From Pocillopora verrucosa (Eukaryota), in NCBI RefSeq assembly GCF_036669915.1, contig NC_089320.1:15851874-15915873 (forward strand): a stretch of 64,000 bases of DNA, given 5' to 3'. Under the pieces are notes generated by a model. The model saw nothing but the letters and a program-made list of their open reading frames with translations. It was not told the origin of the DNA and searched no databases. This document shows positions 2,496 to 40,762 of this stretch, in pieces (position 1 is the stretch's first letter; every line of letters begins with the position of its first letter). A program made the position numbers and the translations under genes.

Positions 2496-2767
2496 ACAAT
2501 TGCAACCGAACTTAGATAGCATAGATGATATGCCAGAGGAGGAAGGTGCCTTGGTGGAGAACAGCTCTTTATCATCAAGTCACTCAGACTGGAAAAACCT
2601 TGGAAACTTTCTCCGCATCAGCCTGGATAACAATCAAAGCACTGTAATACCTTTACACAATGAAATGACTATATTAGAGGTGGTTGAAAATACTTGTAGC
2701 AAACGTCAACTGAACCCAGAGGCCTATTACCTTAAACTCGGATTAGAAGATGATTCAGGTGTAACAG
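2496..2767 (+). CDS. TIAM-like exon: Ras-binding domain (NFLRISLDNNQSTVIPLHNEMTILEVVENTCSKRQLNPEAYYLKLG)
   Basis: cccatAG acceptor; ACAG|GTAAGG donor; ubiquitin-like RBD pattern. Confidence 0.7.
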
Positions 2768-3779
2768 GTAAGGAAAAAAAACTGGTTTTCAGAAAATGTT
2801 ATCAGTATCATCTTTTGCTCTCAATTAAGAAATTTTCCAAAATCTAAAGTAGTGAAAGTTAAGCTTAGACAAAGGATCCGTAAAGCAGTCAAGTGTGCAT
2901 CTTTGTTAGTTATTGATTTAAATGATTAAGTAATGTTTACCCTAATCAACATAAGCATACAAAATAAGGGTAGCTGTTAAATGCAAATAATAAAACAGTT
3001 TAATTTACTTGTATGGTCAAATTGTACTACTAGTAATGATTTTTTTATCTGTAAAATCTCTTGATAAACAAAACACAATACTATGATTATTTTTATATAG
3101 TTTTGTCAACTTTACTGTGTTGATTTATCAAAATAAATTCTTTTAACTTTTTTTTTTATTGCAGACTACACCATTCCCCTCCAGGATTCTTTGCTAGAGA
3201 GTCATGTTAGTAAAGCCTTAAGATACATATTATCTTTTGATGGTCAAATGACTTTACCATTGAATTAAAATGGTTGTTCAAGTATCTTTACTCTTGACTT
3301 TATGATTTTCTGTCAACAGAACTATAACTGTCTCAGGTTATGTGAGAAGTGTACTTTTACTATAGAGTTGGAACGTTCAATGGAGATTGATAGGCTTGAT
3401 TTTGGTAGGTGACATGTAGACATCTGAGCAAGTTGTACTTATGATTTTTTATTTTTTATAAGATATGTTTCATGAAATATTTTGGTGCATAAAAAATCAT
3501 TTATGTTGTTTTATTTTTAATGTATTTATCAAGTATTTGTTTGTCATTGTGTTGCTCTCTGGGGTGCAAGTTCTTATTGAGTCAAATGCTACACGTGTTT
3601 TGTTGTTAATTAAGATATTTCACTTCAAAATAAGGCATGTATGGTCAGAACTCTCAATATCAAGTTGTGATAAAAACTGTGCCTGCTTTCATGTACAGTA
3701 TGTTTTTATGAGGCACTGCAATCTAGCATGTTTGATTCCTATAACATGCTTTTAAAAATATTAAATACAAATTTTTCAG

Positions 3780-3854
3780 GTATATCAGTGGAGAGTAAGG
3801 ATGAAGGCATTGTGGTTAGCTCAGTTGAGGAAGGGAGATTAGCACATGTTCAAG
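3780..3854 (+). CDS. TIAM-like exon: PDZ part 1 (GISVESKDEGIVVSSVEEGRLAHVQ)
   Basis: tttttcAG acceptor; CAAG|GTAAGC donor; phase 1/1. Confidence 0.75.
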
Positions 3855-4009
3855 GTAAGCAAAGAACTACAAAATAAAGAACTCTCAGGAAGGGTTACCA
3901 TTTTGGGAGGCATTTTATCTCCTCATATGTGGAGTCAATGAATACTTAGTGTACAGGTAAATACTTATTAGGAACTTGTAAACTGACTAATAGCAATTTT
4001 TTATGTCAG

Positions 4010-4102
4010 GTGTTAGGGCTGGAGATGAAATTCTTGCTGTAAATGATATTAAAGTAGAAGAAGTAGAAAATGCAGTGGAAGATCTCAGAGAAGCGCTTAA
4101 GG
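4010..4102 (+). CDS. TIAM-like exon: PDZ part 2 (GVRAGDEILAVNDIKVEEVENAVEDLREALKG)
   Basis: tgtcAG acceptor; AAGG|GTATGC donor; phase 1/1; classic PDZ 'GDxILxVN' motif. Confidence 0.8.
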
Positions 4103-4220
4103 GTATGCATCAACATTTGATTAATGTCTTTCTTTGAACTGTGAGATCACACTGTGGAATCTTGATAGCTACATCATGTAAACTACAGAAAGGATCATGT
4201 GGGTTTTTGTTCTTTTCTAG

Positions 4221-4335
4221 ACCCATCCATTACCTTGTTACTGCGTTCATGCCGTGATGAACCACCAGTGGCAAATAAGGTGACATCAGATGCCATTATC
4301 ACCAGTCTTGTTGTTCAGCCGCCTCCTAAAATAAG
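4221..4335 (+). CDS. TIAM-like exon: PDZ C-terminal part (DPSITLLLRSCRDEPP...)
   Basis: ttttctAG acceptor; ATAAG|GTAACA donor; phase 1 in / 2 out. Confidence 0.7.
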
Positions 4336-4825
4336 GTAACAACCGAGCAGTTAGCGAAAAAGAGAAGAGGAGGATTGCGCATTGTTTTACATTTGCAAGT
4401 TGCATGTATTGTTGGATGAGACACAATGTACATATAGACAGATGAACACTCTAGGACAATTTGATGAGAAAAGGGCTAATAAAAAAGTTTAAGTTGTCAT
4501 ATTATTACAATGTTTAATCCTCACGGTATGGTATTTATTACAAGTAGGTTGGGCTCTAATTTCACTTTAAATCTTTTGAGCCTTCATTAGATTGCTACTT
4601 TTCCATCGGATGTACTCTGTTTGGATGTTGGTAAATGTAACTTGATGATGACAAATGCTGACAAATGTTGCTCAAGAAAGTCAACTACACCAAACTTTCA
4701 TATTGTGTAATATGGTTGTGGAAATGCAAACAATTAGTTACCGTAGATGTTTAAGGCGCAAGAATTTTGATAATTTTTTGTAGTCACTTTTAACGTTAAT
4801 AGCTTCAGTTTTCCTATTCTTTCAG

Positions 4826-4878
4826 TGATACAATTCCTGAGCAAGATCTAAGTGACCTCATTGTTCCTCCACCTCAAT
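4826..4878 (+). CDS. TIAM-like small linker exon (SDTIPEQDLSDLIVPPPQ)
   Basis: tttcAG acceptor; CAAT|GTGAGT donor; phases fit neighbours (2 in, 1 out). Confidence 0.6.
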
Positions 4879-5317
4879 GTGAGTGATTTTCCCAGGGCTT
4901 TTCTTTATAAATTGAAGTAGAAATATATATTTATGCTTTTGACTCAAGTTTTTAAGTGTGTATGTGCGTCACCAAAGATGTCCTTATGAGGAGTGTCCTA
5001 TGTAAGGAACCAAAGAGTTTTTAATGGAAAAGCTGGAAGGAATTAAATTCGTTACAGCTTGGACTTCTTGAAAAATAGAGCCGAAATTTTTACAAATTCT
5101 ACATTAACTATTATTTTTTTAAATGTTCTTCATTCTTAGCCGTCCTTTTTCCGTCATGATTAATGTTTGCTTCTTCTGTTTTTCGAAGTGACTTTAAACA
5201 TGGCGATGTCGTTCCATAGAGGTTTTAATTAACACCAATTTAGGCGAAGTAGTTACCTTCAGGATTAATTTTGAAAGTAATTTGGTCTTGCTATTTATTT
5301 ATGTATTGTTGTCGTAG

Positions 5318-5430
5318 CTTTCGACGAAGATTCTGCAGTGGATACGGAAAGCGTTATCACAAGCTATACCGAAGACCTGAGTAGTCCTTCGTCAATACCA
5401 TCCGGCAAGAGTGTGGACGAACTTCTTCAG
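5318..5430 (+). CDS. TIAM-like linker exon (SFDEDSAVDTESVITSYTEDLSSPSSIPSGKSVDELLQ)
   Basis: gtcgtAG acceptor; CAG|GTACCT donor; phase 1 in / 0 out. Confidence 0.65.
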
Positions 5431-5774
5431 GTACCTTCTTTGTCTAGCTTTAATAAAACAATAAAAGCTAACCGTATTGCAGAACCGTCTGCCAGGCGAA
5501 ACTGCATTATTTAGTCAAACTGTATATTTACTGGAACTGTCTTAGATTTTAAAGTCATGTAGAATTCATGTTGTCGTGTTATAATTATGTTGTTATTTGA
5601 AAATGGTGTGCGTGTCGCCTTTCAAATAAGCTTACCTGCTGCCCAAAACTTCTGGTTAGCGAACATTTCAGTGCCTTCATTCGTGGGTTGTCTTTATTTT
5701 GTTGGGTTAAATGTTATGTCCAAAACTCGACGATTAACAACAATTAACTCTTTCTCTTTCTTGTTCACACACAG

Positions 5775-5921
5775 CGTGCTGAACAGGTAACGCTGTTCTG
5801 TAGGCGGCAGGTGGAATACTCAGACGACGAAGAACCCAAGCCGAGTGTTCGTCTTAGCCAAGCACAAAAGCTGCGGAAAGTTATCATTGAACTTGTCGAC
5901 ACAGAAAGATCTTACGTGAAG
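5775..5921 (+). CDS. TIAM-like exon: start of DH (RhoGEF) domain (QKLRKVIIELVDTERSYVK)
   Basis: cacacAG acceptor; AAG|GTAAAC donor; canonical DH helix-1 signature 'VIxELxxTExxYVxxL'. Confidence 0.8.
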
Positions 5922-6039
5922 GTAAACATGAACGACATCCACAAATTATTCTTTCGAAGGAAAAAAAAGCAAACTACTAAAACAAAAAATTGAAAGCAGA
6001 GGTCTTGTACAGACAACGTGGTTTTCCCGCCAAAAACTT

Positions 6040-6110
6040 TCCCGCCGGGGATTTGACGACGCGGCCACCAATTCGCGCGAATATTCGCGAATTCGCGCCA
6101 CCATTGTGAA
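6040..6110 (+). promoter_or_regulatory. Tandem E2F-like sites (TTTCCCGCC ×2) followed by a CGCGAA/TTCGCG palindrome cluster, in TIAM intron 11
   Basis: ggttttcccgccaaaaactttcccgccggggatttgacgacgcggccaccaattcgcgcgaatattcgcgaattcgcgcc. Confidence 0.3.
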
Positions 6111-6591
6111 TCATGCTTAGTTACCTGGCCACTCACCTCTGACGCAGCAAAGTCTCTTTTTTTCCCAGCTATAAGCAATCTTTTTGAACAGTGAAAAGCT
6201 ATAGACATAGGAATTCTTGACTGTAGTGGTTATTTTTTGCGATAGTTTTAGCAACAGCTGGTGTTATCTGTGTTTTGGTTTTGTGTGTGCGTCCAGATTG
6301 CTTGTGTGTGCGTCCAGAGTGTTTTTAATGTCGGCTTCTATAGTCACGGTCAAATCTTCAGCTTATTTGAAGACAATCTGGTAACAGTTAGTCACTCTTT
6401 GTGGTCTAACAGGGCGGTCAGTGGAATAATTTCATGAGTAACTCTCATGGTGGCGATGAAAACAACATGGCTTCTGGTGCATCTTTTTCCTTAAATGTCC
6501 TGCTACAAAGTTTCGTTTGTATTGATGTACAACATTTTCCCTTAAAAATCAAAAAACGTATGAATAAATTTATATTAATGCTTAATTTTAG

Positions 6592-6660
6592 GATCTGAGA
6601 CTTTTACTTAAACGTTATCTTGACCCCATGAAAGATGAAAACTTCATGTCACAATCAGAG
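6592..6660 (+). CDS. TIAM-like DH exon (DLRLLLKRYLDPMKDENFMSQSE)
   Basis: ttttAG acceptor; GAG|GTAGGC donor; 23 codons phase 0/0. Confidence 0.75.
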
Positions 6661-6796
6661 GTAGGCTTATGCTACAATTTTCTAGTGAAAATCGTTCTCT
6701 CTCTCTCTCTTTCTTTCTCGTTCTTTAAGTCAATTATTTAATGGTGTTATACCATTTCACTGACGTTTTTTTCATTCTAATTCTGCCCCAATCAAG

Positions 6797-6922
6797 GTTC
6801 AAGCGTTAGTGTCAACTGTTCATGATATATTAGAGTTTCAAGTGAAATTCCTTAAGGAAATTGAAAGGCCAGTAGAAACAGAGACTGGATTTGAAGAGTT
6901 CAGTGCCGTTGAACAATTTCAG
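6797..6922 (+). CDS. TIAM-like DH exon (VQALVSTVHDILEFQVKFLKEIERPVET...)
   Basis: caAG acceptor; CAG|GTATCT donor; 42 codons. Confidence 0.7.
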
Positions 6923-7370
6923 GTATCTTAGGAGTCTACTTTTTAACTATGAGGCCATAACATGAAAGTGCACTTTTCGATTGAGTGTTCAACAAACAAA
7001 ACCGAAGTTATTACCGCGGCCAATTAGAAAAAAAAAATGATGCCAGCACAAGAAGCCGCTAAGGACTCAATTCATGTCACGTGCCTTGAGCGCAGGAAAA
7101 AAGTAAGCGACCAAGACGTGAGTGGTTCTTGTTTTGTATGTGATTGGTTGGAAGAGTGGCTCTTGACCATACTCGTTGTAGTATTAAAGGAGAAGCAATA
7201 GAATCCTCAATCATTTTCTTCGCTAAATTGCGTAAAAATGAAATTCGACGGGAGATTCCTTTTTGTGTCGTAAACTTCGTGAAGATCTAATAGGGATAAG
7301 AATTAATTAGAACCCTACGCGAGATTCCCATATCTGTAAGGTGTCTTATTTAGCGTTATTTTACTTTCAG

Positions 7371-7479
7371 AACGTTATATACACGATCGGAGAGACATTT
7401 TTCAACTACACGGAACATTTCAAGCTTTACAGTGCGTTTTGTTCCAGTCACTCAAGGGTTGTTGAACTACTTCAGTCAG
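7371..7479 (+). CDS. TIAM-like DH exon (NVIYTIGETFFNYTEHFKLYSAFCSSHSRVVELLQS)
   Basis: tttcAG acceptor; TCAG|GTATGC donor; DH 'Y..FC..h..a' pattern. Confidence 0.75.
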
Positions 7480-7539
7480 GTATGCATTACAAAATAAGAT
7501 CCACCGGTTTCAGCGGGTATTCTGTTCTGTTAGCCCTTC

Positions 7540-7700
7540 ATCAGAGCGAAAGACGAAGGGTTAACGCTCAAAACGTCAGCTTTGAAGCTCTTAACGGTGG
7601 CCAATTTACGTCAACAACTCACTTGATATACTAAATTACCCTGTTACACTCTCCCACTAACGCGGCACCACAGTTTCTTTAGAAACTTACCTCCCTTATT
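7540..7700 (-). repeat. MITE/SINE-like dispersed repeat, family 1 (copy in TIAM intron 14)
   Basis: Reverse complement of the 9900-10055 copy (…AAATTGGCCACCGT[C/T]AAGAG…GCTGACGTTT[C/T]GAGCGTTA[G/A]CCCTTCGTC…; GGGAGGTAAGTTTCTAAAGAAACTGTGGTGCCGCG). Confidence 0.7.
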
Positions 7701-8122
7701 CTGTTCTGTAATCTCCTTTGGTCTCGTCACGCAACGCCCTCTCTCTTCCACTGGTGGTGGACGAGAGAACGCGTGGCGAGACCAAACAACGGCTGTGAAG
7801 GAGACTATCTGTTCTGTGAATGCAAAGATCAAAGCGATTTAGAGATCCATCTGTCAATCTACGATCGTCTCGTTTCCCAGGCATTAGTCATATGGAACTA
7901 CTGGGCTGAGACTCCATTTTTCCCTTTCACATTCTCGATCCCAGAGTCCAATTTTTTTGTGCGACGTCCTTCTCCTTTTTTATTTTCTTTAGTATTTAGA
8001 AATAGAAACTGCATGTGACACTTTTTCTTTTAAATCGCCTGGAATGGCCCAGGAAACTATAAAAATGCTCAATTTATTTGTCGCTTGTGGAGATAGTGAT
8101 TTTGTATTTTTTTTTTTTTCAG

Positions 8123-8217
8123 GATCAAACACGGCGCTGCATGAGTTCCTTCATGCCCGTAATCCAAAGAATCAGCATTCAGGGACGTTGGAATCTTACC
8201 TTATCAAGCCAATTCAG
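8123..8217 (+). CDS. TIAM-like DH exon ([32 protein letters not shown])
   Basis: poly-T + cAG acceptor; CAG|GTGAAA donor; DH 'L.S.LIKPvQ' motif. Confidence 0.8.
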
Positions 8218-8579
8218 GTGAAAAGAAAAAGTTATTTTTTACCCATTTACTGCTTCGTATAAAGCGGCTAATTATGTTAATTAGCCAGTATTCCTTACCT
8301 GGTTGGGTTAAGGTTGGCATGAAGCTGAGATTTGGTGTGCCAAATATGAAATTTGCCCTTAAGTATACTTGTAGCGGAGCTATGAACTGTTGAAGCTTAC
8401 TTACTTTCTTTCTTTCTTTTTTTTCGGTATATTATTGTTTTCTTTTTGGTACAACGCTCGTGACTAATTCCTAACATCTTTTGTTTGTTCGACGAACGAG
8501 TTCAGAATTTACGATCTTTCTTTGTTTTTGTCATACACAAATTTGCCATTGATCTAATAAAACGTGTTCTTATTTGCAG

Positions 8580-8661
8580 CGCGTAGTAAGGTACCCTCTA
8601 CTATTGCGGACAATCTTAAAGCTCCTGGATAGCTCCAGTGAAGAATATAATTGCCTTTTAG
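8580..8661 (+). CDS. TIAM-like DH exon (RVVRYPLLLRTILKLLDSSSEEYNCLL)
   Basis: tttgcAG acceptor; TTAG|GTAAGG donor; DH 'R..rY.LLL..llk' motif. Confidence 0.8.
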
Positions 8662-8759
8662 GTAAGGAATCATATGTCTCACCTCAACAACCCATACGCT
8701 GGGGCTTACTTATCTGGTTAGATGCAGATAAGGATTTCAACAGAATTTCACATTTTCAG

Positions 8760-8872
8760 AGGCTGTGACTGCAATTGAAAAAGTTGCTGAGCACATTAAC
8801 GAGATGCAGAGGATTACAGAGCAGTTCTCACCGGTTTTTCATCAACTGATTGAAGAGTTTGGAGTATTCGAG
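8760..8872 (+). CDS. TIAM-like DH C-terminal exon (EAVTAIEKVAEHINEMQRITEQ...EEFGVFE)
   Basis: tttcAG acceptor; GAG|GTAAAT donor. Confidence 0.75.
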
Positions 8873-9405
8873 GTAAATTACAAATCACAGTTACCTTGGG
8901 CTAATCGTAAAAAAAGTAAAAAAGATACACGCTTGCTTGCGATGGATGACCATGGAAGAATTTAGTTATCTTGATGGCAAAAAATATCCACGTCTAGGTG
9001 AGGTAGGCGCGAGAATTCCAGATAGTGTGCGAGCTCACCAAACTCGAAGCAGGGCAAACAGAAAGAAACAAACGATAGCCGTACATATTGTTTTTAGTGG
9101 CTTAAATATCGTAGTGAAAAGGTAGAGCAGGTGCACCTCTCTAATACTTTCACCCCTTCATTACAAACTGTTTTCTATGTTCAGTCAAAATTGAGACTTA
9201 TTTTCTTTTTCAAGTTTACAGACTAACATTTCAGTAATAAGGACACTCTGTTATGTCCCCTCGAAGTTCGATAGTATTTGTCCGGATTGTTTCCTTGGAA
9301 ATTCTCCATAGTCCACGCTGATCTTTTGCTTTACCGTCTCAATCATGAAAACATACTTCCCCTTTATGTTCCCGAATCGTTCATTCAATTATTTTTCTGT
9401 GGTAG

Positions 9406-9559
9406 CTTGCTGACGTCAGCATAGATCGGCTGACACATCATGGGAAAGTTCGTTGGCTCAATTGCCCGGATGACCTACTGAAAAGTGGAACGCTTAAAAA
9501 GTACCCAGTCTCTCCCAGAATTGGAAAAAAGATGACTCCAGGGACCATGCATCTTTTCG
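9406..9559 (+). CDS. TIAM-like C-terminal PH domain exon 1 (LADVSIDRLTHHGKVRWLNC...GTMHLF), boundaries tentative
   Basis: ctgtggtAG acceptor; TTCG|GTAAGA donor; only combination that is phase-compatible with flanking exons. Confidence 0.4.
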
Positions 9560-9764
9560 GTAAGATAGCATCGATAAAGATAGGTCCGTTATTTGTAATG
9601 GTGTCTTTGACAAGTATTGTTTGCTTTGGTTACTGTACTGCCCTTGCCCCTTTGATTGTGCCGAAGATATTTACATCGTTTTAACCCTCACGTTCCGTAG
9701 AAATATGTTTTTAGTACGTCTATCTGGACCTGAAATTCCGTACTTTGTTCTACCTTCACAACAG

Positions 9765-9829
9765 CATTTGAAAAGGTGTTGATTCTTCTTTACTTGGAGC
9801 GGAAACAGAAAAAGAAAGAAAAAGATCGG
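9765..9829 (+). CDS. TIAM-like PH exon 2 (AFEKVLILLYLERKQKKKEKDR), tentative
   Basis: cacaacAG acceptor; CGG|GTGAGT donor; phase 1 in / 0 out links 9559 to 10086. Confidence 0.45.
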
Positions 9830-9899
9830 GTGAGTCGAAGACAGGGTTTTGTTGTTCTTGTCTCGCATTTCCCTATTAGTACACATGTACCTTATTAAC

Positions 9900-10055
9900 A
9901 AAGGGGGTAAGTTTCTTAAGAAACTGTAGTGCTGCGTCGGTGGGAGAGTATAACAAGGTAATTAGTATTATCAACTGAGTTGAAAACGTAAATTGGCCAC
10001 CGTCAAGAGTTTCAATGCTGACGTTTCGAGCGTTAGCCCTTCGTCAGATACTTTA
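9900..10055 (+). repeat. MITE/SINE-like dispersed repeat, family 1 (copy in TIAM intron 19)
   Basis: GGGGGTAAGTTTCTTAAGAAACTGTAGTGCTGCGTCGGTGGGAG…AACGTAAATTGGCCACCGTCAAGAGTTTCAATGCTGACGTTTCGAGCGTTAGCCCTTCGTCAGA. Confidence 0.7.
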
Positions 10056-10085
10056 TTAACAGCTGTGTCTATTTTTCTTTTTCAG

Positions 10086-10179
10086 CCCACTTCTTTAAGA
10101 TCATCGGATGAAATCAAATTTAAAACTATTATCCCAGCTTCTTCACTGGTTGTGCGAGACCACTGTTGGTTAAATGATG
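10086..10179 (+). CDS. TIAM-like PH exon 3 (PTSLRSSDEIKFKTIIPASSLVVRDHCWLNDG)
   Basis: ctttttcAG acceptor; GATG|GTATGT donor. Confidence 0.65.
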
Positions 10180-10756
10180 GTATGTGATGTATGTTAACTT
10201 GACATGTAATATTCTACGCTGTCCTTACCGAGGCCACAAAGTGATTTTCTAATTTCCTTGGTAAAATGTTGTTTTTTTCCCTCATACGTGCGAGGCGAAA
10301 TCAGTTGTCAAATTTCCGATTTATGTTTACCCCTTAAACCCCTAAGAGAGATAAGAACCTTATTCTCCCAACAGTATCTACCCTGAATCAAACATTAAGG
10401 TAACGAGAATGAAGGAAATAATCGCAAACTCAAGAAGAGTAGGAAATGTATAAAGAACAGTATGGAGAGCTTTCATTCTGATGCTAGGTCGGTTAAGCGA
10501 GTGGTGTTAATAGTAAAGAAGATTACAAATTGACGCTGAAAACAGATGTTAGGGAAAGGTAAATACCTTTTAACATAATAGACCACGATTTATTTGGAAA
10601 ATTATAATAAGGGGGGATTTTTTATAGAGGTTACGAGCTGCCATACAGCACAGTATGTCCTAGTGGAAAAGGGAAGTTTCATTTATGTCATTGACATTTG
10701 ATCGGTGTTTCATGTTTTCAGTCCTGTTTTGGTCATAAAATTGTGTTTCCTTTCAG

Positions 10757-10847
10757 GTCCGGAGCCAATACATTCGTGGGAATTGGTGAACATTAGCGAT
10801 ACAGCAGAGATTGGCAGACAAGAATGTGCATATGTGTTTGCAAACAA
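10757..10847 (+). CDS. TIAM-like PH exon 4 (PEPIHSWELVNISDTAEIGRQECAYVFANK)
   Basis: cctttcAG acceptor; ACAA|GTAATA donor (phase 2) completing K with next exon. Confidence 0.6.
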
Positions 10848-11324
10848 GTAATATTGATACTGGTTCATTTTCAATTGTACATTGTATTGAACTGTCCGTT
10901 GGTTGTTGCGAGGGAAAGGACTTTCTCCTTGACATATTAATATCAACCTTTTCATTCACAAGACCTCAATAATAGTTCACCTTTCTTTCTGCCATAAATT
11001 ACTTATAATTTAGCTTTGAGATTTTGTGTTAGATTTTGCAATACTCCGTTCTTTTATATATTTTTTTTCTTATCGTTACTTTCTGCTAGACAATGGTCTG
11101 ATATTGTAAAGAAAACTCACTTTGTTCACTCCTGTCTGGATGTGAAAAGGTCAATTGATAAAACACCTTTCGATCGACTGTCATAAAACCAAAACAAAAG
11201 TGACCACACTGGCCATTCAGAACGAATAGAACTATTAGGAGTCAATAAGAACTCAAAATAAAACAAAGAAAGTTGCTGATGAGCGCAAAAACGCGAGTAT
11301 CCAAATTACGATTGAACCAAGTTG

Positions 11325-11425
11325 GGGGGAGGAGGGGGGAGGAGGTAAGTTTCTAAAGAAGCTGTGATGCTGCGTCGGTTGAGCGTGTTATGTGATTTGG
11401 CCACCGTAAAGAACGGTTGGGGAGG
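11325..11425 (+). repeat. Family 1 repeat, partial copy
   Basis: GGAGGTAAGTTTCTAAAGAAGCTGTGATGCTGCGTCGGTTGAGCG…TTTGGCCACCGTAAAGAAC. Confidence 0.5.
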
Positions 11426-11662
11426 CAGGTGTGAGTTTTGTAGACCAATTACACCGCACTAAGTATGATCAAACCAATGTAAAGTCGGATTACTTTTGTC
11501 AGTTGATCCTTTAAAATTTTCCCACCAAAGTCGTTGTTTTTATTTGGAAGAAATATTTGAACCATAACGTATCCTCAGAGTGGTGACCTTTAAACAAGCG
11601 CCCGTTACCGTACTTTTCCTGAGACGGTGTGTGTTGAAAGGTTTCATGTGACATTTTTGCAG

Positions 11663-12059
11663 AACTGCAGAAGAAAAGAGAGAGATGGTTAAGTGTATCA
11701 AAGAGGCAATAAAGCGGAGCATCAAGGCTGGTTATAATTTAGCAAACGCCATTGCGCCAAGATCGCCAAGCTTCCGACGTAACAACGCAGACGACAAGCT
11801 CAATGCATCGGATCCAGGCCCCTTCTTACGTCTCACCAGTGATCAATCGTCGCTTTTCCGCCGATCGTTCAGTCACAATCCCGAAGGTTTTCGAAATCGG
11901 AGAACATCGCTCGAGAGCGACGCGACCCATAGTTCGGATGGTTCCGGAGAAACCGAGTCCATCAGCAGTGCTACCACTCGAGATAGAAAGTACAGTTTGA
12001 AGAAAAAGAACAAAGTGGTATCTCCTTTGGGGTTAGAAGATGTTCAGATTAACTTATAA
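11663..12059 (+). CDS. TIAM-like terminal exon: PH C-terminal helix (TAEEKREMVKCIKEAIKRS) + Ser-rich tail, stop TAA 12057-12059
   Basis: ttttgcAG acceptor; long open frame to TAA; no convincing downstream exon. Confidence 0.6.
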
Positions 12060-14764: not shown

Positions 14765-15103
14765 TTACAATTTTCTTTCTGGTCTTCTTGTTTGCACAAC
14801 TTCCCTTGGCAATGCTTTCAATGGGTGGAACTTGCTTCCTTCATCATTCATACCATCTTGGACATCTCCTTCATCACACAGGTGTACCACAATGCTGGGT
14901 GCATCTTCAACAGACTTGTGTAGCTGGCAAGGTTGTGAAGTGTCTAAAGTGGCTACGGCAGCCAGCAGATCATAGTTGATCACTGGGTGAGACTCGAGAG
15001 TCTGTTCCCAGCCAACTGGAGGTGATGCAGGAGGGGAAATCAGGAACTGCTTTGTTTGAGGTGGAGGTTTAAGATTAGAGTTGTTGTTAAGGGAGGACTG
15101 TCT
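14765..15103 (-). CDS. RCAN: RCAN/calcipressin terminal exon with the FLISPPASPPVGW signature and a C-terminal PxIxIT-like 'REVVQTRRPE' motif; stop at 14765-14767
   Basis: ttattttgcAG acceptor; the invariant calcipressin SP-repeat motif 'KQFLISPPASPPVGW' is read directly from the sequence. Confidence 0.85.
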   Translation of the reverse strand, partial: RQSSLNNNSNLKPPPQTKQFLISPPASPPVGWEQTLESHPVINYDLLAAVATLDTSQPCQLHKSVEDAPSIVVHLCDEGDVQDGMNDEGSKFHPLKALPREVVQTRRPERKL

Positions 15104-15722
15104 CTGCAAAATAATACACAATATCTAAATGATCAAAACTATCTGATGAATCAACTTCACAAAAGTGTGTTAGAAAATGATTTTAATGCTGGATTAGTTT
15201 GTTATACTTTCTTTTCTTGTTATCAAGGCCATAGAAAATGAAATTCTCTTGTGAAAGAAGTCATTCATACCACTAATCCTTCCCACACCATCTTCTATCA
15301 AAAATGCTTATGTGATTATTGCAATTTAATCAGCACAGGTCTATACTTGTGAATCGATCTCCCTCCATCCCAAGGAGGAAATTGGAGAAGTAAAAACGTA
15401 TTCAGAGTCTACTGTAGGGTGTTAACAAATCATAGGTTGATTCAGTCTATGAACCATATTCTTCCTAGTGGATGAACAAAAATTAAGATCTGATCCTCAA
15501 AGATGAATGAGTTGATGACACTGCTGTAAAAGAAGCCTGAATTCAAACCAATGCCTCCCAAATACCAATTGATCACTACTACCAAAGGAGCTTTGAGGTC
15601 ACACATCTGCAATATCTTCTGGAAAGATCATCTGTGGGGATCAGTATTTTATTTCCAATTGTTCATAAAATATGGTAAGGAAGGGCTGCATGTCCATCAC
15701 TCTTTGATGTGTAAATAGTCAC

Positions 15723-15902
15723 CTGAACAAGGAAGATGCCGAGTTCATAGCCCAGAAAATACTGCCCATGCAGGTATTTCTTAGCTTCTTTTGCGTACTC
15801 TTCATTGGCAAATGTAACCCTTGCTCTATGAAAAGTCTTTAAGTAGATGAAGCTTCTGTCACTTTCACTTCCATAAGGTGAGAACAACTTTTCAAACACT
15901 TC
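15723..15902 (-). CDS. RCAN: RCAN/calcipressin core exon (EVFEKLFSPYGSESDRSFIYLKTFHRARVTFANEEYAKEAKKYLHGQYFLGYELGIFLVQ)
   Basis: ctttgcAG acceptor, CAG|GTGACT donor on minus strand; strong resemblance to the calcipressin RRM-like domain (FESLFR..FKSFRRVRINF...LH...FLG..LKLYFAQ). Confidence 0.8.
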
Positions 15903-16472
15903 CTGCAAAGAAGAAATGTCAAGTGCTAATTCTAATAGGCACTAAATAGGACCTGTCAAATTTGTAGAGTAATAATTACATCACGAAAAAGTAATGAAAG
16001 ACTATTTACACACAGAAAAGTGAATTTGACATTGCTTTCTAAAGAGAAACCCTGTTGAGCAAAAAATGCATAACAATACCAGATTTTACACAGGGCAAAC
16101 TCCACTTTCAGCTAAGCTCAGGCATAAATCAACATAAGAAGTTGTTGTATTTGAGTTAGAAATACTGGTATATGGATGTTTCTATAACTTCAATGTAAAG
16201 AGAAAAAGATTACAGTGGCTTGCTGTTTCCTTGAAGGCACCAGATGAACAAGCCATCTGAGCCGCAAACATTTAGAAAAAAATTTTTCACAGGTACATTT
16301 GCTGACAATTCACCAATTTAATGACTTGAATGATGGTATGACTGTGGGCTTAAATTTAATTAAGACATAGAAATTTGCATACAGTACTCTAAATACTTGC
16401 TCATTTTCTCTGATGAAAAGTTGTTGGTGTGGTTAAACACAAAGTATATCATATAATACTCCATGTTTTTAC

Positions 16473-21308: not shown

Positions 21309-22126
21309 TTACGCCTCCGTGTCTCCAAAGTTTACTTTCTCATACACGTCGTCCTCTTGAACCACTATCTCCTCCGCTGGAGTATCGTAGGATCTTTGTT
21401 GAGTTCTTGGCGGCAAACACGGACGGCTGTCTTGCAATGCAGGAATAGTCGCGTATGTTGGATCCTCGTTGAAATTGTCTTGATCCCTTATCGGATTATC
21501 ACTATAAAACGGGTTTTCAAAAGACGGTGGTACCTCGTTCTTTTTAAGCACGGCACTTTCTTCATCAGTTGCTTCTTTCTCGTCAGTTCTTTGACGTCTA
21601 AGCTTCTTTGTCTGAGATGCGTTCGATGCTCGCACTTTAGACCTTGCACCTTTCAAGTAAGCGTTTGCACCTTTTCCAAGCGCGCCATCGCCTTCTTGGT
21701 GATTATCTATGTCGTTCACAAAAGATTTTCGAACCGGTGGGGACTTAGCATAACACGGATTCGACGCCCCCATAGGGGAAATATCTTGAAGTTCCATGTA
21801 GGTGTTGTTAGTGTGCGACACTCGCGGCGGAGGGGACATCTCATAGCGGGGGTTCACTGAACCCTTAGGGGTTACATCTTTAGGATCCGCGTAGGTGTTC
21901 TTGGTGTGAGATACCCGCCTCGAAGGGGGCTTTTCATACTGGTGTTTTGAAGCTCCCCGAGGGTGACATCCTTAGGTTCCGCGTAAGTGTGGTCTTCTTT
22001 ATTCTTCTTTTTGGCCGCCGCTATCTCATCCTCTATGGGCATATCAACCACCTTGGTGTAAATTGGATTGGATGCCTCGGCTCCGGCAGCATTGCCAGGA
22101 CTACTGTACAGAGGATTGTTTGTCAC
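21309..22126 (-). CDS. Adhesion-receptor terminal exon: cytoplasmic tail of ~30-aa tandem repeats carrying NPxY motifs (NPLY, NPIY, NPRY, NPCY, NPFY); the reading frame breaks (-1) near 21935-21945, first in-frame stop at 21872, repeat-consistent frame continues to TAA at 21309
   Basis: ttcttcAG acceptor phase 0 after the TM exon; two overlapping ORFs (21872-22126 and 21309-21857) are offset by one nt inside a tandem repeat. Confidence 0.6.
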
Positions 22127-23379
22127 CTGAAGAAAAGCAAGGCAAGATTAAACACATAAAAATTCCAGTAGGACTTTATTGGTCTGAAATGAATGAAAAA
22201 CGTGTCAGGTACTCGCCTAGCTACGACTTTTAACCGACAACTCATGGATTTCAAACGCACAGCTCTCATCCTTAATTCAACTCAACTTGGTATGATTTAG
22301 TTCAGAAGCTTATTTTTAAGTGAGAACAACAAAACGTACGGCCGATTAAGGCGAAGGAAAGTATTCCAAAAAAAAAGGACTCTGACAACTCGAAAAAAAA
22401 CAAACAAATAAACAAGCTACAACCTGAGGAGCGGGAAAACGCTAATGACCAAGTCGTGATTGGTTCTCGTTTTGCAGCTGATTGGTTGAGACGGTAGCAC
22501 GAGTTTTCCTGACCAATCACAGAGCGAAGTAACGCAAAATCGATGCGATCCCGGATCACTTTCCACACTCAATTGAAAATGGTTCTAAACACTATCAATT
22601 GCATCACTTGAAGACAAAATACTCGAAGACTACTTAGAAATAATCGAATGACAGATTATTACGCCATGTGTTTCAGACAGTTTCATTAATCATAAATTCA
22701 TCAAAATCTAACCTGGATATCGTTACGTTTGACAGCAGAAGTGGGATCCAAGTTGTTCCGTACCGATCCATCAGGTTCTTTCCTTAACTTCTCAGCCCAT
22801 TCCTCTCTCGATGGTCCTGACGTTAGCGCATTTCTATTGTCGCCAAAAACTGGGTCGGAGAAGTCCAAGTCTTCCCTGCCTGACTGGAAACGGACGCTAT
22901 CATGCTCGTTCTGTCAAATTAAAACGAGAATACGTCCAGAAGATGTTTGTGATTGGTTGGTTACAAATTTTAAAATTTTCTGTGAAACGAAAAAGGGAAA
23001 AAGCTTGATAGCGCAGTAATGATCTGATTCATTTTGATTCTATTAAACCTAAAAATATTAAAAATCCAAACTGACAGGGAGTAAACTAGCTGGCTATATA
23101 CAAGGCGTGACCCATGACTCAAACCCTTGAGCTCAACACTGTAACCATTAAGCCACGCGACCTCATATTTCCTTGGGGGAGTGTTCTTATCTGCTATAGG
23201 TTAAATACAGTGTAACAGACAGCTAGCCAATAACAGGTTTGCACCCATTGCGATACATCGAAAAGGCAACAAGGATATCAGATGCGACAGAGCAACAAGT
23301 ACGGCGCCACTAACACTGGAAAATCTCTGCCACGGCCGGGGCTGTCAATTTTTAACGTGTAATGTAAGTCAACTGTGAC

Positions 23380-23625: not shown

Positions 23626-24024
23626 ACCGGTTTACCTTCGCCTTCTTGTATTTTCTTCTGTAGTAGAAGACAGCACCAAAAAGGATAGCAATAAGGAGAA
23701 TTATGACCACCACAGTAATACCAGCAATTCCGCCTGACCCCAAGCTACTGGCAGATACGTCCACAGAGGGGTTTCCTATATTGGTGTTAAGACCTCCCTG
23801 GCAGGGCAGCCTGGCTAGTTGGAGTACGTCACAGCTTTCCACGCACTGCCGCACACTGTTGCTAAGTATTCTGCAAGCTTCGGAGGCCGGTAGAGGGGAA
23901 AATGCGTTCCTTGCATCTAGCGCTGCGATGATCAAAAGGCTCTGTCTTTGAGTACCTAGAGAGATTGTTCGAAGAATCTCCACGTAGAAATAATTTGAAA
24001 GCGCTCGTCGTTTTCTGTTGGTGA
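23626..24024 (-). CDS. Adhesion-receptor exon 16: extracellular stalk + transmembrane helix (IAGITVVVIILLIAILFGAVFYY) + stop-transfer RRKYKKAK
   Basis: atttcAG acceptor (phase 1); AAG|GTAAAC donor (phase 0); 23-residue hydrophobic helix followed by a basic cluster. Confidence 0.8.
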
Positions 24025-25248: not shown

Positions 25249-25794
25249 CTAAAGAGAGGAAAAAGAAACAAGGAAGAGAATCTATTAAAATCATATCAAG
25301 ACTTCCCTATGGTCTGTAAACGCTATGTGTCAGGAGAGGTTTATCTTACTGTAATATCGCTTAATATCGCTGTCATATCGCATAAGAATAGATGATCATT
25401 AAGGGAACGAGAATGAGATGGCAAAGATTATTTAAATCACTAACGTTGAATTAAAAAATTTAGGTTCAATATGTCCAGATGTGCAAAAACGTAACATCAC
25501 TCCTTTGAAGGATCTTCGCTTAGCCTCATGCACTGCGCGCGTGTCCAGGGACCGAATCCGCCATTTTCATTGAAACGATCACTGCTTTTTGTCTTTGCTT
25601 GTGATTCTAAATTTAGGTTTATCCTTGCAAATTTATTTTCATTCCCTTTTAACGTAATCAGTGCTGTATTTCGATTCACTTTTATACTGCTTTGAACGCA
25701 TAATCGTGAGAAAAGCTTTGTTCTCTTAGTAAGATACGCAAAACAGAGGCGCGATTGACTATAGGGACATTTAGTCGAAGGTCGCTTCACTCAC

Positions 25795-25970
25795 CTGACA
25801 CTCGATCCCTTGGCATTCATCTATGTTTTTTCACAATGGACACCTGTGTAACCGGACATGCACTGGCAGTTGTAGCCGTCAATCACGTCAAGACAGCTTC
25901 CACCGTTGTAACATAAAGGACAATCTTTGATGTTTGGGCAGACACCACTGCTGTTACAATCTAAACATAA
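25795..25970 (-). CDS. Adhesion-receptor exon 13: EGF-like modules (DCNSSGVCPNIKDCPLCYNGGSCLDVIDGYNCQCMSGYTGVHCE[K]NIDECQGIECQ) with an apparent 1-nt frameshift in an A6 run
   Basis: tgtttAG acceptor; GTCAG|GTGAGT donor; EGF C-x-C-x-x-G-Y-x-G-x-x-C-E and DxDEC motifs are split between two frames at gaaaaaacat (25824-25833). Confidence 0.45.
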
Positions 25971-26204
25971 GGAAAGAAGAAAGCCGATAGTTTCAGGATA
26001 TGCGTTGAATTGCGCCTGTGTAGTTAAGCTATCTTCATTAATTGTAAATTTACTTCATCCCTCGAAATCGTGTGTCTTGCTTTTACTAGGTAATTCAAAT
26101 GTATTCACAACAATCAGAGTGGTAGCCCAAGACACATTTCACATATCAAACTTTACCTGTGATAACAACTTGGAGTGATTTCCCTATGAAGTGAAGTGGT
26201 TTAC

Positions 26205-26548
26205 TGACTTGATAACAGCTGAAGTGAACATGCACAGTTCCATTAGACTCTTTGAAGTCACTGTATGCAATGGGACCTTGGTAATAAGGCGACCCCGATC
26301 ATCGAGTCTAAACAATGCGCTCACGTTCCTCTGAAGCTGGGGAACGACCAAGTTGTTCTCAGGAGTGCCCACTTTACATTCATAATCAACATTCCTGCCG
26401 TAATCATTGCAGCAGCGTTGTTTACCACAAGAAAGTAACGGTGATGATGAATCTTCGATATGTAACTGACCCACAGTAGTGCCCATTGGTTGATTTTCAT
26501 TAACAGTGTGAGGATTCAAACAAATGTCCACTGGATGAGGTCTATCAT
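26205..26548 (-). CDS. Adhesion-receptor exon 12: atypical Cys-containing cadherin-like repeat (DDRPHPVDICLNPHTVNENQPMGTTVGQLHIED…FRLDDRGRLITKV…); boundaries tentative
   Basis: gattttAG acceptor; candidate TCA|GTAAAC donor; phase relation to neighbours is not fully consistent, so an exon may be missing. Confidence 0.4.
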
Positions 26549-27099
26549 CTAAAATCGAGGTAAAAAGGGAAAAAAAGTTGAAAATTTTTATTAAAATAAG
26601 CACAAATGGCCACCTTAAACTATCAAAAACTTTAAGTGGCTCTGAACCATATTTACAGGTTGTTCTTAGCTTTTCAAGGAGATAAATAGTAATGTGGTGA
26701 TAGAAATTCAGCAAATAGGGTTCATTGCGCATGCTTTCAAAATGCAGACACGCACAGCTTCAATTAAAGATCCTGTTTAGGAGGCTTTAGTTTGCTAAGG
26801 TAGCTTTTCGTGCCAAAATAATGAAAACTTGTTGAGAAATAATTTCACATTGTTTTAATACCAATTCCAAGGAAAGAAAGTTAAAGTGTGGAAACAAGGA
26901 TCCATCAAAGAATATCTGATTTCAATCGACAAATCCATTTTGAGCCTCTTTAATTGAATTTCTGAAAATCTTGCTAAGCAAAAGTCCAGCTGGTTACACA
27001 CAAAAACTGTTTCCCAAAAATATATATTCATAATCTCACCTATAATTCTCACATAGAAGGATTTCCTGACTGGCGCAGACATGTTGCCTTTACTGATGA

Positions 27100-27344
27100 T
27101 TGCAATTGGAAATCAAAGCTTCCTCTGCGCTTGACACGTAAAAATCTAGACCATCCTTCTTAGCGACCACTAGCCTGTCTCCGATTATACTAAAAGGTAA
27201 TTGTGCCTCATCTACGAGTTCATACACAAATGTTTCCCCTGGATTCGTGGTCATTGTTGTCAAGGTGCCAACCAAGGAACCACTGATGGCTGTGATGGAC
27301 ACTTCACTAGGTTGAAGTAAAATTTTCATCTGTCGGCTGATACT
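27100..27344 (-). CDS. Adhesion-receptor exon 11: cadherin-like segment (SISRQMKILLQPSEVSITAISGSLVGTLT…FSIIGDRLVVAKKDGLDFY…); 3' (low-coordinate) boundary unresolved
   Basis: tgtctcAG acceptor at 27345-27346 in phase 0; open frame runs to TAA at ~27090 with no clean phase-compatible donor identified. Confidence 0.4.
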
Positions 27345-27707
27345 CTGAGACAAACACGAATAAAAAGTATACAACAACGAGTAAAGGTATGCAACGTAAA
27401 CAATAAAAAAATTTTATCTTTGATAATAACCCTTTAACCCCTAAGAGAGTCTGGCTTCTAGTTTCTCCCTACAGTTCTTCCCTTGTGTCAAATGAAAAAG
27501 TTATGGGAATGAAAGAAATGATCACCAATTTGAGAAGCTCGCGATTATCAAACAAATTCTCCTTGTCAGTGCCATGGAAAGTATAAAAGGAGCAGTGTGG
27601 AGAATATGTTTTAAAACGCTTGGGTGCAAAGGGTTGACAAGCACGATCTGGAAAACTTGACAAAATGCTGAGGGATAATCATTCACGATAATTTATTTGC
27701 ATCATAC

Positions 27708-27851
27708 CTGAAATAACAATGGTACATTCAAGACAGCAGATAAAGGAGCGGTCTTGATGTACTTGTATCCCATGGGGGAGAAACTTGAAATAATGATGCC
27801 ATCATCCTTTACTTCTACGCCTATTGTGAAATTTTGGGCTTGGGATCTATC
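27708..27851 (-). CDS. Adhesion-receptor exon 10: cadherin repeat continuation (DRSQAQNFTIGVEVKDDGIIISSFSPMGYKYIKTAPLSAVLNVPLLFQ)
   Basis: ttttcAG acceptor; CAG|GTATGA donor; 48 codons phase 0/0. Confidence 0.7.
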
Positions 27852-28377
27852 CTGAAAAAGTAAGACAATCGGCAAGGAAAAAGAAAGAAATGAGAGGAAC
27901 AACATGGAAGGCGTTTATCAAATACATAAATGACGGATGTAACTCTATGGAGACCTTGAAATGTACATGATCCACCGAAAATACGCACCGAGTAAACGTG
28001 TACATTTAGTCGGCATAGAGGTAATCACACGATTTCGAGTGAAATTTGGAATAAATAAGCACAAGTAAATTTTTTCAAAGACTAACAAAATTGCTCGAGC
28101 CCGTAGAGTTATTCAGTCTGGTTTGTTACTTCTTTGCACTGAGTTAACCCTCTTCTGCAGTGAATCACTGCAGTGAAAATTGCATTTATCTTAACCAATC
28201 AGAACTGAGTACTTTTTTCATGTATCTTGTTATTAAGGAAAAAGGTGAGGTCCTTTTCGAACCAAGTGGCCCATCCAGCCGGAGCTTATTAAAGAGATAA
28301 ACTGGTGTGTCCACATCAAGGGAGGAGGAATGCCGTAAAATCGTAATAACAGGATATCATTTGTACATCATACTCAC

Positions 28378-38889: not shown

Positions 38890-39054
38890 GAGAGCGTCAC
38901 GTCATGTTGAGAGCGCATTACATTGCTCGCGCGGGAAACTTCCTAGCGCATGTTCACTAGCCGCGTCAGTTACCTGCGGTCGCTTGTCGACTTGTCGACT
39001 TTTAGATACTTTAGGAGGTTATAACTTCGCTTTGAGACTGAAATCGGTCGTGCT
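38890..39054. promoter_or_regulatory. Divergent/bidirectional promoter region between the adhesion-receptor gene (minus) and the helicase gene (plus), with an E2F-like GCGCGGGAAA site and a CRE-like GTCACGTCA
   Basis: Two start codons 680 bp apart on opposite strands; TTTCCCGC(GC) reverse complement at ~38930; tgacgtga-like at 38888. Confidence 0.35.
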
Positions 39055-39613
39055 ATGACTTCTTCTTACGTTTTTGTTGAGGGAAAAGACAGCGACAAAG
39101 AGAAGGAAGATTCGGATTTAGAAAGTGGAAGCGAGGATGAAGGCTTCGAAGACGCTGATCAAGATTTTGATTTCGTTCTCAAGCCATCGCGTAAACTTCG
39201 CAATGGTGCGAAGAAAATGCAAGAAATGGAATTTAGAAACGATCGATTTCGTCTTAAACAGGACATAATCCGAGTGCGTGGTAAATTTGATGAGCGTTTT
39301 TCTCATCCTTGGTGGAGAGTGGAATTCAAATTGGACGCGTCGAAATCTTCGACGAGCTTTAAGCACGCTACTTCACTGCCTTCGTACAGTATTCGAACGG
39401 ATGACGATGTGAATAAAAGCTTGCTGTCGCAGTTCCTCACCACAGGTTGTGAAGTGAATGATCAACACGTCACGATATTGCTGGAGTTTCTTGAGAGAAA
39501 AAATTTGAAACCCACATTTGAGGATCTGGTTAAAAACTTGGAGAAATTTGCTGAAACCGACAAAGAGGGTCACGACATTGCTGAGCAGATTAGAGCAGCG
39601 CTGGACCGTAAGC
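39055..39613 (+). CDS. HELB-like helicase gene exon 1: acidic N-terminal region (MTSSYVFVEGKDSDKEKEDSDLESGSEDEGFED…ILLEFLERKNLKPTFEDLVKNLEKFAETDKEGHDIAEQIRAALDRK)
   Basis: ATG ORF; perfect C|GTAAGT donor at 39614 whose phase-1 overhang joins in frame to the acceptor at 40220. Confidence 0.55.
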
Positions 39614-40220
39614 GTAAGTTTAAGTATGTTCTATGCTAATTGTGTTTATATATTTATCCCTTTCACTCCCAAGTTCTCATTAATAGTTCTCCTTACTGTC
39701 TGCCATACAAATAATGTTAGTTTGGGGAGTTTGGTAGTGGACCACATTGTGATATTTTTCCTCATTCTTATCACTTGTCTGCTTTATATTTTTTATATAT
39801 TGTAAGAGAAATTCTGTCTGGTCACTCATGGAAGTGAAATGGTTAAACAAGAGAGACCTAGTATAATTTGCACTATGAAATATATAATTTCACAAACTGT
39901 TTATTACCCACACTGTCTTTTTCTATATTATTCTGTTCACTAGTGTTTAGACGTCTGATATATTTGTCTGGACTGGATGGGTTTAGAGGCTCCATTTGGC
40001 TTTAAAACAAAGTATTCAACCATATCATTCAATAACTGCTCAATTTTGACCAGCAAATTTACATTTTTAGAAACTAGCCATGGACCTGTTGGGACAGAAG
40101 CATTTCAATATTTCAGCTTAATAATCCACCATCCACTATAATTTTTATTGTGCCAATGTTTCATGGTTCAACTGTTACATGTTATTATTATTTCTTTTTT
40201 TCACTTTTTCATCTTAATAG

Positions 40221-40762
40221 CAACTGGTAAAGCCTTCGCTGTTCCTTTGTTTACCAAGTATGCTCATCAGCTGTTTCCTCGTCGTGTTTGTTCAATCTTT
40301 GAGGAATCTTCTAAGGAAGAGCTGGAAGAGCTTAATGAGGCCTTAAATAAAGAACCCTGGGTTTTTGGTTATTGGAGTGTTCTCAAACAAAGATTTAATC
40401 TCTCAAGCTGTGAGGTAAAGCTGAAATCATTTGAAGACTGCAATCTACTTGACCAAATGCCAATTGCCAAGCAAGATGCATTGCACATATATAATGCCCT
40501 TTCACGATTGCTTCGTAAGTATGGCCATACTTATGTAGAATTCAAGATGCTGACAAAGGAGCTAAATGGAGTCAGAAACTGGAAAAAAAGTCTTGACTAT
40601 TTGAGAGAAATTGATGTTGTAGGGACTTCTGAAGACCATCTGGGTGACAATCGGCATGTCTTTTTGACACATGTTCGTCGTTATGAAGAAGGAATTGCAA
40701 GAAATGTTGTTGCAGTCATGGATGAAAAACCTTGGACAAGTAATGTGGAGATTGATGAGAAA
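40221..40762 (+). CDS. HELB-like helicase exon 2 (PTGKAFAVPLFTKYAHQLF…LREIDVVGTSEDHLGDNRHVFLTHVRRYEEGIARNVVAVMDEKPWTSNVEIDEK)
   Basis: atcttaatAG acceptor; AAA|GTAGGT donor; phase 1 in / 0 out. Confidence 0.6.

Follow-up and report, generated by a model that had tools for sequence, protein, structure and literature searches.

The apparent -1 frameshift in the cytoplasmic tail of a coral receptor gene is very probably an error of the assembly consensus, in which one G was dropped from a run of five, and the tail that it seems to cut short is a genuine, conserved and uncharacterised coral-lineage variant of the known NPxY/PTB-docking design. The exon concerned, at 22126-21309 on the minus strand of the window (the whole stretch of 64,000 nucleotides that was analyzed), is the terminal coding exon of a Pocillopora (stony coral) TSP1-EGF-cadherin single-pass receptor. 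This reading is carried by two observations: only this assembly shows the indel, which no independent sequence of the genus shares, and the surrounding region holds an excess of 1-nt indels regardless of coding status. A real private allele and a pseudogene are, even taken jointly, improbable.

Exact-sequence look-up placed the window ORFs in a cluster with XP_058952437.1 (labelled P0056 here), a RefSeq entry of 1976 aa from Pocillopora verrucosa named "uncharacterized protein LOC131779869", along with numerous ORFs drawn from Logan assemblies and from the coral metagenomes of Tara Pacific. The RefSeq protein represents either an orthologue of the window gene or the same gene, with exons that are 92-100% identical; its gene model is uninterrupted, whereas the window gene has six single-base frame breaks. 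The encoded order is a signal peptide, TSP1, Ca-EGF, a series of cadherin repeats, EGF, one transmembrane helix and a cytoplasmic tail of ~347-348 aa. Pfam analysis of the full 1976-aa protein recovers TSP1, EGF_CA/cEGF, cadherin (four scored stretches) and hEGF/EGF, which bears out the preliminary description of this exon as the last one of a cadherin-type receptor. The cadherin family PF00028 scores above its gathering threshold in several window exons and in the RefSeq protein (1.3e-38, four stretches), and the cadherin linkers DxNDxP/DVNEAP can be seen in the sequence. Because EC repeats are present, the receptor is a member of the cadherin superfamily, non-classical and single-pass; its 348-aa cytoplasmic domain matches no Pfam family at E<=0.01, and since Cadherin_C is among the families without a match, a classical cadherin is excluded. 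This domain is assembled from three parts, namely the end of the transmembrane exon (...YYRRKYKKAK), a middle exon of 66 codons and the terminal exon. By tblastn, residues 1638-1705 of the RefSeq protein fall on the middle exon and residues 1703-1976 on 22132-21312, the latter in two frames. A calcipressin gene lies downstream, a synteny common to the window and a more distant relative (contig L002).

Table 1. Features of the receptor gene in the window (positions are those of the whole stretch).
Feature	Position	Strand	Remarks
Terminal coding exon, 272-aa cytoplasmic tail after one G restored	21309-22126	-	Acceptor ...ttcttcag, GTG at 22126; TAA at 21311-21309
Premature stop (...ILKM, stop), uncorrected frame	21872-21874	-	
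Frame break	21955-21958	-	G4 on the coding strand (plus-strand cccc), G5 in all other Pocillopora sequences; DNA alignments
Repeat unit 1, DHTYAEPKDVTLGGASKHQYEKPPSRRVS	21909-21994	-	Contains the indel; KHQY in place of NPxY
Repeat unit 2, HTKNTYADPKDVTPKGSVNPRYEMSPPPRVS	21816-21908	-	
Repeat unit 3, HTNNTYMELQDISPMGASNPCYAKSPPVRKS	21723-21815	-	Found in all relatives
NPLY, first NPxY	22106-22117	-	Tyr kept in 12/13 relatives
NPIY	22058-22069	-	Tyr in 3/13; NPLH in most relatives
NPRY, in repeat unit 2	21843-21854	-	
NPCY, in repeat unit 3	21750-21761	-	Tyr kept in 12/13 relatives
Conserved basic block KVRASNASQTKKLRRQRTDEK	21576-21638	-	
FENPFY (NPFY at 21515-21504)	21504-21521	-	Within EVPPSF[E/D]NPFY block, invariant in 13/13
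EDPTYATIP (Yxx-hydrophobic)	21441-21467	-	Conserved, Tyr invariant
C-terminal YEKV, in EDDxYEKVNFGDTEA	21333-21344	-	Conserved, Tyr invariant
Middle cytoplasmic exon, 66 codons, NEHDSV...KRNDIQ	22713-22910	-	Phase 0 at both ends; splice sites read
Transmembrane helix IAGITVVVIILLIAILFGAVFYY, then stop-transfer RRKYKKAK	23636-23728	-	Read from sequence; exon ends at donor gtaaac
Five further single-base frame breaks, ectodomain exons	25831-27726	-	tblastn frame switches; private vs 3/3 Tara contigs

The frame break itself is present in the window, as had been described. Starting with GTG ACA AAC AAT CCT (VTNNP...), the frame that enters the exon (frame A) reads VTNNPLY...TPTRILKM and runs into the premature stop listed in Table 1, while the rest of the tail lies in the -1 frame, which is open between 21971 and 21312 and ends in ...YEKVNFGDTEA. 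One base is missing, and without it the stop after ILKM would indeed drop three NPxY motifs. A short-seed repeat search recovered a 30-nt core (...TYADPKDVT...) three times with start-to-start spacings of 93 and 92 nt, which puts one missing base between units 1 and 2. The preliminary description had located this base at aacacc[c]agtatg (21935-21946). Alignments with orthologous and conspecific DNA are gap-free there, as they are with relatives over the stretch AACACCAGTATGAAAAGCCCCC, and the missing G lies ~10-20 nt upstream of that site: a single gap falls within the G-run, where the window has CTC-GGGG-AGC and relatives have CACGGGGGAGC or CCTGGGGAAGC. The proposed protein junction, with ...TLGELQ joined directly to KHQYEK, has to be replaced accordingly. 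With one G restored, the 272-aa tail has the junction ...DVTLGGASKHQYEK..., and the correct reading across the site is ...KDVTLGGASKHQYEKPP.... A protein search with the joined tail found 25 single-ORF homologues, of which two, 272 and 273 aa long, align over 100% of the query and read ...KDVTHGGASKNQYEKPP... and ...KDATPGEASKHHYEKPL...; these readings mean that the -1 frame of the window (GASKHQYEKPP) is already correct upstream of the site first proposed. The continuous reading is the ancestral one, and the earlier suggestion of a homopolymer miscall as the cause of the break was essentially right, one G having been lost from a G5 run. A run of G4/G5 is short for a classical homopolymer error, a point that counts against an artefact.

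The G5 run and an uninterrupted exon of 272 codons are found in all independent Pocillopora sequences recovered, a set comprising more than 25 Tara Pacific or Logan contigs (13 checked at the DNA level) and RefSeq XP_058952437.1. The RefSeq protein and the 272-aa ORFs P0057 (20 contigs), P0058, P0064 and P0066 give the correct reading without interruption, and G5 stands in every Pocillopora contig inspected as DNA, including L004-L006, L012 and L015-L020. Conspecifics did not come up in the first tail search, since their tail ORFs belong to a 90% cluster that is represented by another exon of this gene (P0026). Exact look-up found the post-frameshift ORF of the window, 182 aa in length, verbatim on three Tara scaffolds. 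These matches were considered as a natural frameshift allele and rejected, for all three scaffolds have G5, and in each of them a gap of 100 N covers the exon start and shortened the ORF call to 182 aa. A literature search on Pocillopora assembly frameshifts yielded nothing useful.

These comparisons make it very unlikely that the sequenced colony really carries the single-base deletion, as a germline or somatic allele with a tail that ends at ...ILKM. Such an allele would explain why the break is present in the window sequence. Two window-private substitutions flank the break (ACG>ATG at 22041 and GTT>GTC at 21965), so the window haplotype is distinct, and marine invertebrates are highly polymorphic. 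However, the break is missing from every independent Pocillopora sequence recovered, the exact truncated ORF of 84 aa is absent from a collection of 15 billion proteins, and the 215 residues that follow the break are 100% identical to P. verrucosa XP_058952437.1 by tblastn; the allele would also have to coexist with a 5-10-fold excess of 1-nt indels throughout a 20-kb stretch. The tail of this allele would keep NPLY and NPIY and lose the conserved C-terminal motifs. In its assembled form the gene has five other breaks upstream of the transmembrane helix, and the notion of a "truncated tail allele" therefore has no meaning. The truncated, polymorphic or recently pseudogenised allele that the preliminary description had named as an alternative is not supported, the break occurring in no independent Pocillopora sequence and being one of six private breaks.

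The five upstream breaks, which had escaped the preliminary description, appeared as frame switches when the P. verrucosa protein was searched by tblastn. They fall inside ectodomain exons, where there is no space for an intron, at 27726 (deletion), 27326 (insertion), 27112 (insertion), 26266 (deletion) and 25831 (deletion), and around each of them the homologous frame is open and 92-100% identical. A four-way alignment identifies all six breaks as window-private single-base indels, with three Tara contigs in mutual agreement at each position.

Single-base indels are in excess well beyond the six breaks. Compared with each Tara contig over ~18-20 kb, the window has 206-214 mismatches and 40-44 1-nt indels (ratio 0.19-0.21), whereas the Tara contigs compared with each other over a similar span have 138-237 mismatches and 4-10 1-nt indels (ratio 0.02-0.04). 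At the same SNP divergence, the indel-to-mismatch ratio of the window thus exceeds that of natural Pocillopora variation 5-10-fold, both inside and outside coding DNA. Between 32.3 and 43.8 kb of the window, a comparison with another Tara contig gave 58 mismatches and 4 1-nt indels (ratio 0.07), a near-natural value, and the excess is thus regional. The window has 33 private 1-nt indels and 82 private SNPs across 20.2 kb, and 20 of the 33 indels lie within 25.4-28.2 kb, a clustering that fits a locally poor consensus. About half of the private indels are located outside runs of three or more, which argues that the error process is not purely homopolymer-driven.

Private 1-nt indels are equally dense in CDS (6 in 3191 nt) and in non-coding DNA (13 in 6410 nt). 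Among the three Tara contigs, mutual comparison finds zero indels in CDS and about four gap columns in non-coding DNA. An excess that is blind to coding status and reaches into introns fits consensus error, not a natural allele or a pseudogene. If the whole gene were a recently inactivated pseudogene with six real frameshifts, the accumulation of six frame breaks in one gene would be accounted for, as would the private SNP densities, which are alike in CDS (11 in 3191 nt) and introns (26 in 6410 nt), the CDS value being not clearly lower. This similarity counts to some degree against an artefact, since it is also expected from relaxed constraint, though the numbers are small. Inactivation does not explain why the surrounding introns and intergenic DNA have an equal excess of 1-nt indels, and with six indels to eleven substitutions the gene departs widely from the 0.02-0.04 of natural variation; moreover, nonsense codons and larger lesions are absent from all homologous frames. 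A pseudogene is for us less probable still than a real allele.

A break in the DNA might also be bypassed in expression through programmed -1 ribosomal frameshifting, transcriptional slippage or an alternative 3' splice site (...caccag, followed by TATGAA). Downstream of the break it is the -1 frame that is open, over 220 codons, and an AG in phase 0 stands directly before TATGAA. Against this, an X XXY YYZ slippery heptamer is absent at ACC CTC GGG GAG, a G4 run is too short for slippage, and a pyrimidine tract is absent before the internal AG. With a continuous ORF in orthologues and conspecifics there is nothing to bypass, and we give this possibility almost no credence. Consensus error remains the preferred reading of the break, and the corrected tail is the one to which the following observations apply.

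The corrected tail contains three units of ~31 aa with a DNA identity of 57-67% and 12-16 of 31 residues in common. Tandem Repeats Finder called no repeat in the terminal exon. Every unit has a tyrosine in TY(A/M)(E/D)(P/L) and a second tyrosine 16 residues on, which is part of NPRY in unit 2, NPCY in unit 3 and KHQY in unit 1. The preliminary description of ~30-aa tandem repeats, each with an NPxY motif, is hence right about the tandem arrangement and the presence of multiple NPxY motifs, and wrong about unit 1. Equivalents of this unit in two other lineages read SKNQY and SKHHY. Across three lineages with three units each, units in corresponding positions are identical at 18-27 of 31 residues as compared with 9-19 for non-orthologous pairs; this positional orthology indicates that the triplication is old and that unit 1 already lacked NP in the ancestor of these lineages. 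Elsewhere among corals, lineages have two units or a single one.

Five NPxY motifs occur in the corrected exon (NPLY, NPIY, NPRY, NPCY and NPFY). In 100,000 shuffles of the 348-aa cytoplasmic domain, the mean was 0.107 NPxY and a count of at least four was never reached. The only tail motif that fits the canonical [FY]xNPx[YF] is FENPFY, found as FENPFY or FDNPFY in all 13 homologues aligned; NPIY, in contrast, is not a conserved tyrosine motif, given its replacement in most relatives (Table 1). Invariant or nearly invariant blocks of the 13-homologue alignment are the N-terminal NP(L/I)Y, KVRASN.SQ..KF.RQ.S.EK, EVPPSF(E/D)NPFY, E(D/E)PTY.TIP, LPPR and the C-terminal ..YE..(N/T)FG.... Within the basic block, RQR[S/T] is possibly a basophilic kinase site, a putative assignment made from its sequence. 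A regular-expression scan of the tail for ITAM (Yxx[LI]-x6-12-Yxx[LI]) or ITIM motifs found none, the only YxxL/I being YATI. AlphaFold2, supplied with the family alignment, models the tail with a mean pLDDT of 56 and a pTM of 0.12, and assigns it four helical turns of 3 residues and no longer secondary-structure elements. This prediction is consistent with a disordered tail that carries short motifs. Single-ORF homologues of the tail are found in many coral contigs.

Several known receptor systems resemble this arrangement in part. [quoted passage not shown] CED-1, Draper, MEGF10 and Jedi-1 likewise combine EGF modules in the ectodomain and a single transmembrane helix with NPxY and other tyrosine motifs in the tail, and recruit CED-6/GULP via NPxY (PMC8092387, PMC4055271). 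Unlike CED-1/Draper/MEGF10, the coral receptor is without an ITAM, an EMI domain or a long EGF array, having only few EGF modules, and its ectodomain consists mostly of cadherin repeats and one TSP1. It is a member of neither the LDL-receptor nor the CED-1/Draper/MEGF10 family, and would merely share the mode of action of LDLR, LRP or Draper tails. Integrin beta is likewise an adhesion receptor that uses multiple NPxY/NxxY motifs for adaptor docking and endocytosis, and NPxY tails are common on adhesion receptors such as integrin beta1 and also occur on APP, LRPs and TrkB (PMC4389405). Integrin beta tails have two NPxY/NxxY motifs, which bind talin, kindlin and Numb; they differ from the coral tail in being short (~50 aa) and belong to heterodimeric receptors with an unrelated ectodomain.

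A further parallel is calsyntenin/alcadein, likewise a cadherin-repeat protein in whose cytoplasmic domain an NP-type motif engages the PTB domain of X11L/Mint; for calsyntenin-1, which is cadherin-related, a passage of PMC10820826 that cites Araki et al. 2003 states that the Mint PTB domain binds via an NP-type motif. Calsyntenin differs in having only two cadherin repeats, a divergent NPME and no tandem 31-aa units. Sequence similarity to the coral tail was undetected, the latter being without a Pfam match. The PTB docking of calsyntenin-1 means that NPxY on a cadherin is an uncommon combination and not an unprecedented one. In calling such motifs unexpected on a cadherin-type receptor, the preliminary description overstated the case, considering the calsyntenin-1 passage (PMC10820826) and the precedent of integrin beta1 (PMC4389405).

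Judging by motif resemblance only, a role in PTB docking and endocytosis is the most likely one for the tail. Signals of the type [YF]xNPx[YF] are bound by the PTB domains of ARH, Numb, Dab2 and Dab1 and drive clathrin-dependent uptake (PMC4389405). The coral tail may similarly serve to dock adaptors with PTB domains (Dab, Numb, ARH or GULP/CED-6 type), and perhaps AP-2, and would in this way couple an adhesive or ligand-binding ectodomain to clathrin-dependent internalisation or to tyrosine-kinase signalling. Adaptors would bind primarily at the invariant FENPFY, the NPxY and TYxxP tyrosines of the repeats could offer additional docking sites that possibly depend on phosphorylation, and YATI and YEKV may be sites for AP-2 or SH2 domains. 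The tail peptide EVPPSFENPFYSD is a candidate PTB-domain ligand, beside the NPxY peptides of the repeat units. A more specific proposal, which we regard as unlikely, is that of an engulfment or endocytic receptor of the stony-coral lineage, in which a TSP1-plus-cadherin ectodomain would be linked through FENPFY and the Yxx-hydrophobic motifs to adaptors of the GULP, Dab or Numb type, while docking valency would be tuned by how many 31-aa TYxxP...NPxY units (one, two or three) a given lineage has. The uptake of dinoflagellate symbionts by cnidarians has been linked to TSR-domain proteins (PMC5446238), and on this ground the receptor could act in the internalisation of particles or symbionts.

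The main value of these results is in quality control. The window between ~11 and 31 kb, and worst of all between 25.4 and 28.2 kb, has many single-base consensus errors, which break an otherwise intact gene for a protein of 1976 aa six times. Frameshifts or "pseudogenes" called within ~11-31 kb should be given no biological reading, and the gene models of this assembly need polishing. There is in addition a modest secondary value. RefSeq already lists the product of the gene as an uncharacterised protein, and its design principle is already known from LDLR/LRP, Draper/MEGF10, integrins and calsyntenin. With a disordered tail that carries a canonical FxNPxY motif and an NPxY/TYxxP unit of variable copy number, this conserved cadherin-TSP1-EGF receptor offers a candidate on which a role of adaptors in coral endocytosis or engulfment can be tested.

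Besides the frame break in its cytoplasmic tail, the cadherin gene carries five extra single-base frame breaks in its ectodomain exons, all of which are private to the window when compared with three contigs from the Tara Pacific coral metagenomes. As assembled, the reading frame of this gene is interrupted well upstream of the transmembrane helix. Private 1-nt indels are in excess across window positions ~11300-31800, numbering 33 vs 82 private SNPs, and 20 of the 33 fall within 2.8 kb, with peak density at 25434-28170. The stretch at 32.3-43.8 kb is normal-looking, with a ratio of 1-nt indels to mismatches of 0.07. This excess suggests that the assembly is locally unpolished or gap-filled at ~11300-31800. 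The Tara scaffolds have a peculiarity of their own: an identical 100-N gap (locus 318-417) is present in three independent scaffolds, L018, L019 and L020 (= L004), where it spans the boundary between intron and terminal exon together with the exon's first ~100 nt, its end directly adjoining the window-private substitution at 22041 (ACG>ATG, T>M). Because the gap lies over the start of the terminal exon, a spurious 182-aa ORF is called on these scaffolds; it is the same sequence as the post-frameshift ORF of the window.

Features of the window and their coordinates
Feature	Window position	Strand	Description
Multi-exon gene	190-12056	plus	large; PH domain (613-1029), checked
Calcipressin (RCAN) gene	14768-15941	minus	directly downstream of cadherin gene
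DFSDPVFGD	22845-22862	minus	middle cytoplasmic exon, Pocillopora
Five extra single-base frame breaks	27726, 27326, 27112, 26266, 25831	minus	ectodomain exons, cadherin gene
SF1 helicase gene	39025-45330	plus	multi-exon; AAA_30/AAA_19/PIF1-like
1184-aa ORF	47906-51457	minus	intact; endonuclease (Exo_endo_phos) and reverse transcriptase (RVT_1) domains
GPCR ORF, copy 1	53177-54163	plus	329 aa, intact; rhodopsin-family; 7tm_1 E ~1e-17
GPCR ORF, copy 2	59872-60858	plus	329 aa, intact; rhodopsin-family; 7tm_1 E ~1e-17

L002, a more distant relative, and the Tara contigs also have the calcipressin neighbor, and synteny is thus conserved. The helicase gene, whose Tara counterpart L003 carries a HELB-type winged helix, is arranged head-to-head with the cadherin gene (first exon ~38373-38251). 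From a reading of its translated exons, our guess is that the gene with the checked PH domain may encode a Rho-GEF-type protein. The 1184-aa ORF is a young-looking LINE-type retrotransposon, and the GPCR ORFs lie in the two nearly identical copies of a tandem segmental duplication (flanks ~52.5-57.6 kb and ~59.1-63.8 kb).

Ectodomain homologs of the cadherin gene are present in Desmophyllum pertusum. In alignment A3 of the tail homologs P0001-P0025, coral lineages differ in how many copies of the 31-aa tandem unit they have: Pocillopora, P0001 and P0002 have three units, P0019 and P0023-25 have two, and P0003-P0009 have one. At the position of the Pocillopora motif DFSDPVFGD, L002 has DFSNPVYGD (9018-9044). 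This juxtamembrane motif is a sixth FxNPxY, decayed in Pocillopora by N>D and Y>F.
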